Source: an uncultured Rhodospirillaceae bacterium (GTDB taxonomy: Bacteria; Pseudomonadota; Alphaproteobacteria; GCA-2731375). Taken from it: a DNA stretch of 53,825 bases. Where the stretch lies: the NCBI GenBank assembly GCA_964507245.1, contig CAZDQC010000002.1, positions 2,285-56,109 on the forward strand, read 5' to 3'. This document shows, in pieces, positions 5,473-10,802 of this stretch; position 1 is the first letter of the stretch; each line of letters starts with the position of its first letter. The notes beneath the pieces were generated by a model. That model searched no databases. It worked only from the letters and a program-made list of their open reading frames with translations, and was not told the origin of the DNA. Position numbers and translations under genes: made by a program.

Positions 5473-6372
5473 TTAAATTCCAATCAAATTTCGCAATTTG
5501 GTCTCTCCTGGCATATCGGGAGTGCCGAGAAAAACCAGCCGGTCTTCGCCCTCAAGGTCCATGGCTTGAGTGAGTTCATGGCGCCGCCCCACAAGTTGAA
5601 AAATCCAACGCCCCGATTTTTGGCGAAAACGAACAATTCCTTTTGAACGCAAAACGGATTTTGGCAGGGTTGCAATGGCTTCCATAAATCTGACCTCATC
5701 CATCGGCTCCCTCAAAAGCAGGGATACGGAGCTGAAGGCACCCTCGTGGCCATGGTGATGATCCGGCCCCCCGGCAGATGCGCGCTTTCCTGTACCTAAC
5801 AGCAATTCCGTAGGCACCTGGGCTTGGCGAGCTTGAATTATCGCTGCTTCTGGCACCTGTTTCGCCAGCCATTGTATGACCTCATTCCGATCATAGTCGT
5901 CCAGCAAATCGCATTTATTCAGGACTATCAAATCGGCGGCAGCAAGTTGCCGCAAAACAGTATCACCCACATACTGATCACCAGCCCTTTCCTCGATCAA
6001 CTCCGCGTCTGCCAGAACTATCACTGCGTCCGGGGTCAAATCATTGTGCAATACGGCGATATTGGTAATGGGCTGGGGGTCAGCGACGCCGCTGGCTTCG
6101 ACGAGGATGTGTTCAGGTGGGTCCTCTTGACGCACCAGTTTCATCAATGTCAGGAATAGATCGTCACCCATGGTGCAGCAGATGCAGCCGTTGGCCAGTT
6201 CTACAGTTTCACCCTCGTGATCCGCCAGCAGGTCACCATCTACTGCTAGGTCACCAAAATCATTAACCACAACAGCAAAACGCAGGCCCGTTCTTTGGGC
6301 CAGCAAGTTGTTCAACAATGTTGTCTTTCCCGCGCCCAGGAAACCTCCAATCACTGTTAACGGGACCGCCAT
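5473..6372 (-). CDS. CobW/COG0523 (G3E) P-loop GTPase metallochaperone
   Basis: GFLGAGKTT, VVNDFG, NGCICC, EASG, NKCD, a short His patch (DHHHGH) and the CobW C-terminal RSKG motif. Confidence 0.95.
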   Translation of the reverse strand: MAVPLTVIGGFLGAGKTTLLNNLLAQRTGLRFAVVVNDFGDLAVDGDLLADHEGETVELANGCICCTMGDDLFLTLMKLVRQEDPPEHILVEASGVADPQPITNIAVLHNDLTPDAVIVLADAELIEERAGDQYVGDTVLRQLAAADLIVLNKCDLLDDYDRNEVIQWLAKQVPEAAIIQARQAQVPTELLLGTGKRASAGGPDHHHGHEGAFSSVSLLLREPMDEVRFMEAIATLPKSVLRSKGIVRFRQKSGRWIFQLVGRRHELTQAMDLEGEDRLVFLGTPDMPGETKLRNLIGI

Positions 6373-8016
6373 TCAGTCCTCATCCCGGGCGGAGAAAATT
6401 CTTCCTCCCAACACTGTTCCCCACACGGGAATATCTTTTAGATCTACCGGTGCGATGGCAGTTGGGTCATCTTCCAACACGGCAAAATCCGCTCGCTTGC
6501 CCACTTCGATGCTGCCGATTTCCTGGTCCATCTTCAGGCTGTAGGCGGCACCTAGGGTGATCGCACTCAGGGCATCGGCGACGGTTATGCGTTCGTTTGG
6601 GCCTAGCAGATAGCCGGAAGCAGTCAACCGATTGACCGCGCACCAAGCGGTGAACAACGGACCAAGTGGCGTGACCGGGGCGTCGGAATGTATGGCGAAG
6701 GGTACGCCTAGGCGGATGGCCGTGGCCGCCGCATTGGCGCGTCTTGCCCGGTCGGGCCCCATGGTCTGTGTGCGATGTTCATCGCCCCAGAAATAGATGT
6801 GATTGGAGAAAACATTGACACCGATCCCCAAGGCCGCCATGCGGCGATACTGGCTTTCATCCGCCATCTGGCAATGCTGGAGCGTATGCCGGTGGTCACG
6901 GCGCGGTGTCTTGGCCAAGGCAGCTTCGATCGCATTTATGGTCACCTCGGACGCTTCATCACCATTGGTATGAATATGAACCTGGTATCCGGCATCGTGG
7001 TAGGCCTGAACCGTGGTGTAAATCTGATCCGGGCTCATGTTCCAGATACCATTGGGGGCGCCATTGTAATAGCCGGGCCAGCGCAGACGCCCGGTCATCC
7101 CCTGGATGGAACCATCCGTCATTAATTTAACCAGGCCGAAACGTAGTTTATCGTTGTTCAATTTTACCAGTTCAGCCATGCGGGCCACGCCCTGATCGGT
7201 CGGTACGCTGATACCGGCAAAGGCCGGAGCAATACGAAAGCGAAAATCATCATCATTCGTCCAAGTCACAAGGTTTCGTACGAATTCTTCCGACAAACTA
7301 TTGTGCAAATCTGTTGCGGTGGTGACACCGGTCTGACAAGCAAGCCGACCGAAGTTTTCCAACGACAGCTTTTCGGATGCCTCGGTGTTGTAATCCAGAC
7401 CAATTGCATTCAGGGCCATAGATTTAGCTGCCGTTTCTTGCAGTTCACCCGTCGGTTCGCCATAGACGTCCTTGGCGATGCCGTCGATGTTTATAGCAGA
7501 CGTAATGTTCGCCGCTGCCAAAACTGAGCGGGATACGTTCAACAAATGTCCGTTGGAATGCAGGACAACAACGTGGCGCGTGGTAGAAACTTTGTCTAGG
7601 TCACGGAGGTCCATGCGTCGACCGCCAAAATAAATGGGGTCAAAACCCCAAGCGACCAAGGGCGTATCGTCGTCCGGCATCGCAGCTTCGATCTTGACCA
7701 GTTTTTCAGATACGGCGTCAATGCTTTCAAGGCCTTCATAGACCTTGCCGTCAGGCCCCACACGTGGATGATATCCCAAATAGTGGTAACGCCAGATACT
7801 GCCCTGCCACAGATGGCAATGACCTTCGACAAGGCCAGGCATAAGCACCTTGTCAACGAAACGATCATTGATCACATAGTCACCCCAGCCGGTGACGTCG
7901 TCGAGGGAGCCTACCCCAAGAATACGGCCGTCCCGTACCGCGACATGAGTCGCCACGGCCTGATAGCTATTCATGGTGATAATTTTGCTCGCAGGAAAAA
8001 TTGTAATGTCGGACAC
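6373..8016 (-). CDS. Amidohydrolase 3 (YtcJ-like) metal-dependent hydrolase
   Basis: PGLVEGHCH, KLMTDGS, IHTNGD, QHCQ, HSDAPV, GSIEVGKRADF. GTG start chosen after AGGAG. Confidence 0.92.
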   Translation of the reverse strand: MSDITIFPASKIITMNSYQAVATHVAVRDGRILGVGSLDDVTGWGDYVINDRFVDKVLMPGLVEGHCHLWQGSIWRYHYLGYHPRVGPDGKVYEGLESIDAVSEKLVKIEAAMPDDDTPLVAWGFDPIYFGGRRMDLRDLDKVSTTRHVVVLHSNGHLLNVSRSVLAAANITSAINIDGIAKDVYGEPTGELQETAAKSMALNAIGLDYNTEASEKLSLENFGRLACQTGVTTATDLHNSLSEEFVRNLVTWTNDDDFRFRIAPAFAGISVPTDQGVARMAELVKLNNDKLRFGLVKLMTDGSIQGMTGRLRWPGYYNGAPNGIWNMSPDQIYTTVQAYHDAGYQVHIHTNGDEASEVTINAIEAALAKTPRRDHRHTLQHCQMADESQYRRMAALGIGVNVFSNHIYFWGDEHRTQTMGPDRARRANAAATAIRLGVPFAIHSDAPVTPLGPLFTAWCAVNRLTASGYLLGPNERITVADALSAITLGAAYSLKMDQEIGSIEVGKRADFAVLEDDPTAIAPVDLKDIPVWGTVLGGRIFSARDED

Positions 8017-8027
8017 AGGCGAAACTC

Positions 8028-8864
8028 CTAACCGTGCCAGGGCTGTAACAAAATCCATAACATTTCTACGGCGCGCAGCCAGTCATCCAGGGCCCGTTGG
8101 CGCGGCTCAAGGATAAGGGCATCGACGCCGGAGGTGGCATACCCATCCGCCATTTCCTTCAAAGCATTCGGGTCATCCTCCAACGGGTCCCAGAAAAGGC
8201 GCATTGAAACAACAAAATCCTTGCCGCGGGCCGCTCGAAGGTCCTCAATAATGGGGTTAATCTGATCCGTCGGCACGCGGGTGCCATGCCAACCGTCGCC
8301 CAGAGCTTTGGCTCGGCGCAAGGCCGGTTTGGAATTGCCGCCGACCCAGATGGGGATCTTGCGTTCCGGTTGCGGTAAGGCACGAATGCCATCCAGGGCT
8401 GCGGTCACAGTGGTAGGTTGATAGGAGATGGGGTCTTCGCCCCAGCAGGCCCGAAGGATGTTGATGATATCGTCAGTCCGGGCGCCCCGATCATGGAAGG
8501 GTACGCCCATGGCGTCGAATTCTGCTTCCATCCAGCCGACGCCGGTGCCCAGGATCAACCGTCCGTCGCTCAATAAATCTAGGGTCGCGAGCTCCTTAGC
8601 TAGGTGCGCTGGAATGCGTAAAGGCAATACCAAAACCGAAGTTCCTAGTTCCACTCGGCTTGTAGCCGCCGCCGCCCAGGTCAAAGTGATCAACGGCTCA
8701 TAAAAACTTTTCGAAGGCGGATAGGGGGCATCATGTGGAATCGCTAGATGATCATTAACCCAGATATTGTCATAGCCCAAATCCTCAGCCTGGCGGGCGC
8801 CGCGACGCACGGCTTCGGGCCCTGCCTTGCGACCGATTTGGGGAATGTGAATGCCCAATTTCAT
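8028..8864 (-). CDS. LLM-class (luciferase-like) oxidoreductase, Rv2161c-like, possibly F420-dependent
   Basis: AEDLGYDNIWVNDH, LGTSVLVLP, LAKELATLDLLSDGRL-LG-GVGW-EAEF, IPIWVGG, GDGW. Confidence 0.88.
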   Translation of the reverse strand: MKLGIHIPQIGRKAGPEAVRRGARQAEDLGYDNIWVNDHLAIPHDAPYPPSKSFYEPLITLTWAAAATSRVELGTSVLVLPLRIPAHLAKELATLDLLSDGRLILGTGVGWMEAEFDAMGVPFHDRGARTDDIINILRACWGEDPISYQPTTVTAALDGIRALPQPERKIPIWVGGNSKPALRRAKALGDGWHGTRVPTDQINPIIEDLRAARGKDFVVSMRLFWDPLEDDPNALKEMADGYATSGVDALILEPRQRALDDWLRAVEMLWILLQPWHG

Positions 8865-8932
8865 GATGCAATCCTTCTTGTGCTACGGGGGCGAGGCTGT
8901 TGTAATCTTCCGAGTATAGGAGAAATGGCGCT

Positions 8933-10582
8933 ATGGTCCGAGAGCTTATGAACCCTTGTGGCATTGTTGCGAGCGAGGATATGCCACTTGCATCACGCGG
9001 CATGCATGACGGCCCGACGATAATTGGTCTGTTCTCAAATCAAAAAGCCAATGCGGATTTGTTCCTGGATAATATCCAGGCTTTGTTGTCCGATCGATTT
9101 GATGATGTGGAATTCCTCCGCGGCCAGAAATCGGCCTCTGTGCCGGCGGAATTCTCTGACGAGTTTTTGAATCGCTGCCATATGGTGGCGGCCGCCTTTG
9201 GCGATTGAGGTTCATGCACGTCGTGGTGTATCCATGACAGCATCAAGTTAGAGAAGCTGGGCATACCCACCGCCACAGTCTGCAGTGATGAATTTTACAG
9301 CTTGGGCAAGGCGGAAGCTCAATGCCTCGGCGTACCCGGCCTACCCATTGCAGTGGTGCCCCACCCGGTCGCAAAATTATTGCCTGATGAAGTGGCCGGC
9401 CTTGCCCGTGGCGTGGTGGATGAAATTTATCGTCTGTGGCATGAGGACGCGGACCATCTGCGCGCCGAGTTCAAAGAAAAACAACCGTCCGCAAAACAAC
9501 AATTACGATACAAGTCATTGTTCGAAGGGAATTATACCGCCCCCAATGCACCTGAACGTATGAATGGCCCAGACGATTTGGACGGCGTTAATCGCCTGTT
9601 CTATAGCAGAGGGTGGACCGACGGCCTTCCCATAATCCCGCCCACGCCGGGACGATACGAAAAGATGCTGAGCGGGACGAATCTTGATGTAAATCAACTG
9701 TTATCCTTGATCGAGCCTCGTCAAGGCAAGGCTACAATTGGTAAGGTAGCGGTCAATGCAGTTATGTCGGGCTGTCTGCCGGAACATTTGCCGGTGTTGG
9801 TGGCCGCCGCCAACGCTCTGGGCAATTCGGATCTGAACCTCAAAGCTCTGAATACCACCACGCACCCTTGTACGGTTCTGGCTATAATCAGCGGCCCCAT
9901 TGTTGAAGAAATCGATATTAACAGTACCTACAACGCCCTTGGCCAGGGCAGCCTAGCTAATGCCACGATTGGTCGGGCAATTAGGTCAATCCTGTTGAAT
10001 ATCGGTGGGGGCACGCCCGGGATCCTGGATCGGGCCACTATGGGCTCTCCGTCCAAATTTAGCTTCTGCTTTGGTGAAAGGGCCGACGAAAGCCCATGGG
10101 GCGAAACTCTGGCCATGGAGCGCGGTTTTGCCCCGAATCAAAATACTGTCACCCTGTGTGGGGTTGAGGGGCCGCACAATGTGAACGACCATTACGGCAA
10201 GACGGCCGAGGAAATCTTGCTGACGGTCGGCGGCACCATGGCGCAACCAGGGCTGAATAACAGCTATCTGGGTGGTGAAATTATTGTGGTTCTGGGGCCG
10301 GAACATGCCGACATCATCGCCAAGGACGGCTTTTCTAAATCTGATGTCCGAAAATTCTTAATGGAACATGCTCGGATACCGGCCCATGCTCTGTCCGATC
10401 CACAACGCGATATTATGCGTCAATATGTACCACATCGCCTTTTGGACAACGGCAAGGGCGATGCCCTGATTGTCACTTCTCATGATGAAATTTTATTGAC
10501 GGTGGCTGGTGGCGCGGGTCGCCACTCGGCGATTATTCCCTCGTTCGGCAACACCAGGGCGGTGACTGAGATCATTGGATGA
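8933..10582 (+). CDS. UGSC-family selenoprotein (Sec at codon 92, TGA 9206-9208) fused to a C-terminal GWTDGLP domain of unknown function; 549 aa
   Basis: AGGAG RBS at 8918-8922. ORFs 8933..9208 and 9302..10582 are in frame (offset 369 nt). The gap translates without another stop: [43 protein letters not shown], a U-x-x-C motif. Confidence 0.9.
9209..9240 (+). promoter_or_regulatory. Candidate bacterial SECIS hairpin
   Basis: Directly after the TGA: TCATG(9212-16) pairs with CATGA(9233-37), and CAC or TGCAC pairs with GTG or GTGTA around a loop starting with G (GTCGTG). Folded by eye only. Confidence 0.5.
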
Positions 10583-10802
10583 GCCTTGCGGGCGCCTGGA
10601 TAGGTCTCCCTTGGATGACATGCCAATTACAATGGCCAGGCCAAAGAAAATCATGGCCACTGCCCATGTTGTTTCAGACATCAGAACTCTAGCGAACTGA
10701 AAATCTTTTGCAGTGTGCTGGATGCGAGCACAGGTTAATTCTGAGACAATCTCAAAAGCGCCAGAGAACTAAATTTTATAAATCGTCTCATGGGTCATAG
10801 GC

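Follow-up and report, generated by a model that had tools for sequence, protein, structure and literature searches.

A 'UGSC-containing protein' was listed by Zhang and Gladyshev as a selenoprotein of unknown function (PMC1976440, which names Hyphomonas neptunium among its carriers), and UGSC was counted among the major selenoprotein families of the Global Ocean Sampling (GOS) metagenome, where its fold was given as 'likely' thioredoxin (Trx)-like and a 'UGSC/Unknown_1' fusion was recorded (PMC2398784). A 2026 review describes the function of UGSC as still uncharacterised and, like the GOS survey, classes it with the Trx-like selenoproteins (PMC13188914; PMC2398784). In the GOS data the family comprises 255 selenocysteine (Sec) and 21 cysteine (Cys) sequences, the opposite of the thioredoxin-fold families, in which Cys members far outnumber Sec members (PMC2398784, Table 2). 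The second described system that bears on the present locus is selenoprotein B of the Stickland reductases (GrdB, GrdF, GrdH and PrdB), in which a UxxC unit is paired with a pyruvoyl subunit, GrdE or PrdA; the U151C variant of PrdB is inactive (PMC11229817). The literature passages considered here contain no statement that ties UGSC to GrdB/PrdB. We analysed a UGSC gene within a stretch of 53,825 nucleotides from an uncultured Rhodospirillaceae bacterium (contig CAZDQC010000002.1, positions 2,285 to 56,109, forward strand), referred to below as the window. What appears to go beyond the literature is a Sec site of the GrdB/PrdB type on a flavodoxin-like scaffold, and the near-universal coupling of this scaffold to a large unnamed domain, here called the C-domain.

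Judged by its sequence, the gene is a further member of the catalogued UGSC selenoprotein family. PF24696 matches residues 5-170 with E 8.2e-43 (146.9 bits against a cut-off of 25), NF041046 ('UGSC family (seleno)protein') scores 140.3 bits against a cut-off of 125, the U/C-G-S/A-C motif is present with an in-frame TGA, and the genome has the means of Sec insertion. An initial annotation of this DNA had proposed an undescribed reductase system. The family is not new, having entered the literature in 2007-2008 as a selenoprotein with no known function, and the fusion with a second domain had already been noted (PMC2398784); the 'Unknown_1' of that source may be the present C-domain. At the family level the window protein does not differ from its described relatives, with the same U-G-S-C motif and the same preference for Sec.

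Sequence evidence strongly supports the decoding of TGA 9206 as Sec. Between ATG 8933 and TGA 10582 the only interruption of the frame is the TGA at 9206-9208, and the PF24696 and NF041046 matches span this codon without interruption. A Cys-form homologue of 554 residues (P0022) aligns end to end, with 54% identity over 547 residues, and has Cys in the U92 column. The family was found in 33 of 301 genomes of the same class, with 67 matches, among which 61 have exactly one in-frame TGA at the site, 5 have Cys and the last, a fragment at a contig edge, falls short of the site; the U/C92 and C95 columns are invariant in all 35 aligned UGSC domains. A hairpin is predicted at the equivalent place in 32 of the 32 TGA-bearing UGSC genes that were folded. 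Under the named structure 86% of cells pair, whereas shuffles reach 76% and slid controls 11-48%; both sides have changed in 4 of the 7 pairs. RNAalifold gave no consensus structure in the 45 nucleotides following the TGA, because the hairpin register varies between subgroups, and no Rfam family matches the hairpin region. The genome encodes SelB (442 bits) and SelA (584 bits) side by side, SelD (383 bits) and tRNA-Sec. The selD gene (C86:11713-12639) itself contains an in-frame TGA, indicating that selenophosphate synthetase is a selenoprotein here. In some genomes, selD-like, selA and selB genes are found no more than a few kilobases from a UGSC/C-domain module (L090:9809-15258 and L091:12724-16501; also L089 and L093).

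The initial annotation had pointed out three motifs that occur in the order known from GrdB, and these are indeed present in one frame: U-G-S-C at residues 92-95, a second motif of 14 residues (letters not shown) at 104-117 (9242-9283) and IAVVPHPV at 139-146 (9347-9370). The likeness to selenoprotein B that was read from them stands as remote homology. When the 35 UGSC domains were scanned singly against 18,950 NCBIfam models, GrdB was matched by 16 of them (best E 2.3e-5), GrdF by 13 (1.2e-5), GrdH by 9, PrdB by 8 (4.1e-5) and TIGR01918 by 5, while every family other than UGSC and the Grd/Prd models was matched by a single domain. The window domain itself matches TIGR01917 at E 0.058 (12.3 bits), residues 69-162 lying on model positions 323-413 of 431, and 18 of the 34 other UGSC domains match Grd/Prd models at E <= 0.05. 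The register is constant in all these matches, with UGSC residues ~65-165 on positions ~323-420 of 431 in GrdB or ~111-221 of 238 in PrdB. As a negative control for the method, 73 C-domains put through the same recurrence test yielded no family in more than two members.

Profile comparison points the same way. A profile of the 35 UGSC domains (A1) was aligned with one of 32 PrdB-like proteins from the same bacterial class (A2), which match TIGR04483 (PrdB) over ~200 of its 238 positions with E 1e-17 to 1e-43, all below its cut-off; the GrdB/PrdB side of the comparison thus consists of curated models and PrdB-like proteins, with no bona fide clostridial GrdB or PrdB sequence in it. The hhalign alignment (E 2.6e-4, probability 42%, 78 columns, score 34.9) places the Sec column on the Sec column and brings the LExxGxPT and hydrophobic-Pro segments into register, whereas reversed and unrelated controls score 13.5-16.8 (P 0.23-0.43). 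In the reciprocal direction, a UGSC hidden Markov model (HMM) matches 152 of 152 PrdB-like proteins with a median of 9.1 bits, 56 of them at 10 bits or more, compared with at most 2.2 bits, and none reaching 10, for their reversed copies; these counts overstate independence, since the PrdB-like sequences are related to each other. The motif order is also confirmed on the PrdB-like genes of the same genome. Taken at the level of sequence profiles, the likeness to selenoprotein B exceeds chance, and a remote homology between the UGSC domain and the C-terminal, Sec-bearing part of GrdB/PrdB is strongly supported.

By the same profile evidence the UGSC domain is not a member of the GrdB/PrdB family, since the alignment covers only ~95 residues and the scores fall short of the cut-offs by one to two orders of magnitude. 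PF07355, which covers the N-terminal two thirds of GrdB, has no match to the window protein at E <= 1, and this part of GrdB has no counterpart in UGSC, just as UGSC residues 1-60 have none in protein B. What the domain shares with GrdB/GrdF/GrdH (TIGR01917, NF040794, NF040795) and PrdB (TIGR04483) is a UxxC motif with Sec in first place at the homologous position, within a common order of strand, U-x-x-C helix, LExxG(I/L)PT strand, helix and a hydrophobic strand with Pro. Both are also alike in their strong preference for Sec and in a two-component design. However, the partner differs, being the pyruvoyl subunit GrdE/PrdA in one case and an unrelated unnamed domain in the other, and so does the setting, as the UGSC host is aerobic and no GrdE/PrdA, GrdA or GrdC/D was found in it. 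PF09338 (GrdE/PrdA) and PF04723 (GrdA) have no match in the 93.9%-complete genome, nor in the control genomes, so that these searches have no positive control. The aerobic life of the host, which the initial annotation had suggested, is supported by a haem-copper oxidase in the genome; its subunit I match (C29:16454-17839, minus strand, 453 bits) contains one in-frame TAG.

The initial annotation had noted that there are no grd genes in the window. While no GrdE/PrdA or GrdA match was obtained in the genome, with the reservation just given, it does contain five PrdB-like selenoprotein genes outside the window (contigs C36, C46, C194, C200 and C53; loci L001, L002, L044 and others), each with one in-frame TGA and a U-P-x-C motif. 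Their products (for example P0122 and P0123) match TIGR04483 with E 1e-24 to 1e-37, far under its cut-off. PrdB-like proteins carry the same UxxC...LExxGxxT...P-R-hydrophobic pattern as UGSC but are much closer to PrdB (about 200 of 238 model positions). They co-occur with UGSC in 21 of the 33 UGSC-positive genomes, a figure that is confounded because both need Sec machinery, and neither a C-domain nor a UGSC gene lies within 1.5 kb of any of the 32 PrdB-like loci.

Structure prediction places the Sec site on a scaffold other than the one guessed in print. An AlphaFold2 model of residues 1-176, built from the 35-sequence alignment, has a predicted local distance difference test score (pLDDT) of 91.7, and its DSSP assignment reads as a beta-hairpin followed by b-a-b-a-b-[U92]-a-b-a-b-a. 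U92 is predicted to follow strand 84-90, the third strand of the beta-alpha run, and to sit at the N-terminus of helix 93-108. Flavodoxin, Ras, CheY and PBP-type folds are among the matches listed by Foldseek/VIA-align for this model. A flavodoxin-like alpha/beta sandwich is thus strongly supported by the model. In its topology the model departs from a thioredoxin fold: it consists of five beta-alpha units, Sec comes after the third strand, and the beta-beta-alpha end is missing. Since this element order does not fit thioredoxin topology, the printed Trx-like guess is not borne out by the prediction, and the suggestion of the initial annotation that the protein acts otherwise than as a thioredoxin agrees with the predicted fold. 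The domain nevertheless has in common with thioredoxin-fold selenoproteins (Trx, Prx, DsbA-like) a UxxC motif at a helix N-terminus and would probably form a selenenylsulfide that is reduced by a thioredoxin-type system.

None of 73 C-domain members scanned has a Pfam or NCBIfam match, the GrdE/PrdA models included, and there is no sequence match in the PDB, where searches with P0001 and with profiles A1, A2 and A3 gave best E values of 0.034-1.9 on unrelated chains. A relationship to GrdE/PrdA was accordingly rejected for this domain. Yet the family is large: at E <= 1e-3 it has at least 4999 representative clusters, and 1095 remain at E <= 1e-30. It occurs in a stand-alone form of ~340-370 residues and in a fused form of ~530-570 residues. 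The motifs conserved among the 73 sequences are GWTDGLPxxPPT, NAVMAGCxPE, GPGxRANATIGRAxR and VAGGxGxHS. The C-domain model (pLDDT 93.9) has no clear structural match in the PDB and places Cys281, position 97 of the model, between helices 85-94 and 99-112, at the predicted N-terminus of the second. The Cys of a 'THPC' motif was also considered as a key residue and rejected, as it is not conserved.

The distribution of the two domains strongly supports, at the level of gene order, that the C-domain is close to an obligate partner of UGSC. It is fused to UGSC or directly adjacent on the same strand in 34 of 35 UGSC loci; among these 34, the order is C-domain then UGSC in 23 and UGSC then C-domain, fusions included, in 11. 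The remaining locus (L021, G243:C119) is the only one of the 35 with no C-domain within 1.5 kb. The fusion indicates that the two domains act together. The window genome contains seven UGSC and eight C-domain copies, and all complete UGSC copies are paired. Its paralogous C-domains are just 30-44% identical, and several divergent paralogues per genome are what would be expected of substrate-specific enzymes.

A further hint comes from relatives in which the two domains are split. In six of them (L082, L091, L094, L098, L099 and L100) the C-domain protein carries an N-terminal extension of ~110 residues with C-P-T-C followed by PGCG. When the extensions alone were compared with Pfam, five of the six gave only thioredoxin-superfamily matches, all of them sub-threshold (E 0.0016-0.27; TraF, Thioredoxin, Thioredoxin_2, AhpC-TSA, Glrx-like and Redoxin). 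In the fused protein of the window, the UGSC domain occupies the N-terminal place of this CxxC extension. A contig-edge C-domain copy of the window genome (C250, L003:2-1144) is also listed with a CxxC N-terminal extension. Clusters that resemble the C-domain in the Atlas bear the automatic names 'thioredoxin domain-containing', 'AhpC/TSA' and 'thiol-disulfide oxidoreductase', which serve as a lead only and probably stem from the CxxC extension, absent from the window protein.

We consider it somewhat probable, on the sequence evidence, that the protein is a Sec-dependent reductase of a small-molecule substrate in which UGSC is a Sec/Cys redox module serving the C-domain. The C-domain would hold the substrate site, with Cys281 as a nucleophile, and the UGSC domain would be its dedicated redox module. 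The U92 selenolate would attack an oxidised or substrate-bound centre in the C-domain, which could be a Cys281 adduct or the substrate itself; C95 would resolve the Se-X intermediate to a selenenylsulfide, and a thioredoxin-type system would re-reduce it. In split relatives, re-reduction would probably be aided by the thioredoxin-like CxxC extension and, at a few loci, by a TrxB-like flavoprotein whose gene adjoins the module. Its mode of action would thus resemble that of the UxxC unit in Stickland protein B, with no pyruvoyl partner involved.

Several points weigh against this reading. The hhalign probability is just 42%, the HMMER scores on Grd/Prd models are far under the curated cut-offs (12-23 bits where 602 would be required, for instance), the aligned stretch is limited to about 95 residues (78-100 columns), and the PrdB-like sequences are mutually related. 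No PDB chain matches the PrdB-like profile in a sequence search, so there is no solved GrdB/PrdB for comparison of folds. The thioredoxin-like nature of the extension may be overread, as it rests on sub-threshold matches and automatic Atlas names, and gene neighbourhoods beyond the UGSC/C-domain pair are not conserved in the 25 regions surveyed. A more Stickland-like version is kept alive by the strong preference for Sec, by the existence of paralogue families and by the sequence kinship to protein B.

In that version, the U92 selenolate attacks a carbon of the substrate in a reductive C-N or C-S cleavage as in Stickland protein B, and the C-domain replaces the pyruvoyl subunit as the activator of the substrate. 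We regard it as unlikely, although several observations are in line with it: the remote homology to the Sec region of GrdB/PrdB, the preference for Sec over Cys (61 against 5 here; see also PMC2398784), an obligate second component that precedes UGSC in 23 of the 35 loci, like prdA-prdB, several divergent paralogues per genome, as with GrdB/GrdF/GrdH, and catabolic neighbours at some loci (dimethylformamidase-like, amidohydrolase, CoA-transferase III and TRAP transporter genes). However, PF09338 and PF04723 are unmatched in the genome (again with no positive control), the C-domain has no sequence relation to the GrdE/PrdA models, just the redox-motif subdomain is common with protein B, and the neighbourhoods are inconsistent. 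The thioredoxin-like CxxC extension and the conserved Cys281 suggest thiol/selenol exchange instead, and we favour the view that a Sec/Cys redox relay accounts for them as well as, or better than, attack of selenium on carbon.

It is less likely still that the protein is a general antioxidant or thiol-disulfide oxidoreductase, in which UxxC reduces protein disulfides or peroxides and the C-domain has a regulatory or targeting role. The UxxC motif itself, the grouping of UGSC with Trx-like selenoproteins (PMC2398784; PMC13188914), the automatic names of the look-alike Atlas clusters and the sub-threshold thioredoxin-family matches of the CxxC extension would all be in line with such a role. Yet the UGSC model lacks a thioredoxin fold, the Atlas names probably derive from an extension that the window protein does not have, and a partner of 350 residues that is obligate, highly conserved and rich in invariant polar positions has the look of an enzyme rather than of an accessory. 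Up to seven paralogues per genome would also be unusual for a housekeeping redoxin.

A role as a carrier of a metal, metalloid or chalcogen, with U-G-S-C-T/S-S-C/W-C holding Hg, As, Cu, an Fe-S cluster or a persulfide/perselenide for the C-domain, appears very improbable. An extra Cys does lie at +6 or +7 past the Sec in most members, a sub-threshold match to the ferredoxin NapF was seen in 1 of 34 members, and a CobW-type metallochaperone gene is found nearby on the other strand. However, invariance is limited to U92 and C95, with one subgroup (...UGSCTPAV...) lacking the third Cys; there is no recurrent match to metal-binding families, and the CobW gene is divergent and not a recurrent neighbour. 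Last, the notion that TGA 9206 is a true stop, which would leave a 91-residue fragment and a separately started gene of 426 residues (TTG 9302) or a pseudogene, is almost certainly wrong: translation table 11 does split the locus into a 91-codon stub and a TTG-started open reading frame (ORF; 9302-10582, 426 residues), and most database homologues are annotated with 409-470 residues from starts past the TGA, but entries of that length are the expected output of gene callers that stop at TGA, and Pfam and NCBIfam matches cross the codon, full-length homologues have Cys in that column, exactly one TGA is retained there in 61 of 67 family matches, the hairpin is conserved and the Sec machinery is complete.

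The coordinates of the gene and its parts are collected in Table 1. The gene stands alone, with a divergent luciferase-like gene on one side and a convergent pntB on the other. The minus-strand frame at 5473-8058 of the window would extend over 861 residues if its TGA were read through, but it actually comprises a CobW-type GTPase (5473-6372) and an Amidohydro_3 amidohydrolase (6373-8058); since these are two separate genes, that TGA is an ordinary stop, and read-through ORF lists over-call selenoproteins.

Table 1. Features of the UGSC selenoprotein gene, in window coordinates.
Feature	Position	Strand	Basis or remark
Shine-Dalgarno-like AGGAGA	8918..8923	+	Read from sequence; 9 nucleotides before ATG 8933
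Selenoprotein coding sequence, 549 residues plus stop; UGSC domain, linker, unnamed C-domain	8933..10584	+	
UGSC domain, residues 5-170, predicted flavodoxin-like alpha/beta	8945..9442	+	PF24696, NF041046, AlphaFold2
TGA read as selenocysteine U92, motif D-U-G-S-C (residues 91-95)	9206..9208	+	
Cys95, partner of U92 in U/C-x-x-C	9215..9217	+	Invariant, 35/35 aligned domains
SECIS (Sec insertion sequence)-like hairpin, 7-bp stem, 5-nucleotide loop containing GU, beginning 12 nucleotides past the TGA	9220..9238	+	
Interdomain linker	9443..9550	+	In neither HMM; first 20 residues of C-domain model have pLDDT 49-58
C-domain, about residues 207-548, unnamed large family	9551..10576	+	Own HMM, positions 4-345
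Cys281, motif NAVMxGC-x-PE, near-invariant	9773..9775	+	At least 90% conserved, 73 sequences

The survey of neighbouring genes covered 25 regions, several of which share a genome, and used a crude greedy ORF caller; the resulting counts are lower bounds because antisense ORFs were mis-called in GC-rich loci. Recurrent neighbours are SelB (at least four regions), CoA-transferase III (at least three), a luciferase-like monooxygenase (at least three, including 8028-8864 of the window) and a TrxB-like flavoprotein (at least two). The last of these, a pyridine-nucleotide disulfide oxidoreductase, adjoins the UGSC module on the same strand on contig C178 of the window genome (L078:408-4998), where an EthD-domain gene follows it, and at L085:8555-10048; it is a candidate reductant of the UGSC module. 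On contig C91 of the same genome (L077:7571-14021), a gene resembling the dimethylformamidase beta subunit (DMFA2_C) precedes UGSC, a tandem pair of C-domain paralogues and an alpha/beta hydrolase gene, and it is possible that this cluster is catabolic.

Taken at its broadest, the pair may represent a widespread class of pyruvoyl-independent, Sec-dependent, substrate-specific reductases of aerobic marine and freshwater bacteria, derived from the Stickland Sec module, whose paralogues would reductively cleave different small molecules (for example, osmolytes or amides at a C-N, C-S or C-O bond) and whose partner would be a new catalytic fold; this generalisation is tentative, and we hold it to be doubtful. 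UGSC has been without an assigned function for nearly twenty years (PMC13188914), and the problem has now become testable, as the family can be approached through a Sec site of the GrdB/PrdB type, a near-constant partner of ~350 residues with neither a name nor a solved relative, and a predicted helix-capping Cys. Should the pair prove to be a reductase, aerobes would join the organisms that use selenium chemistry of the Stickland type, and the pair could help to explain why these bacteria retain the Sec machinery, whose selD, selA and selB genes lie beside the module in some genomes.

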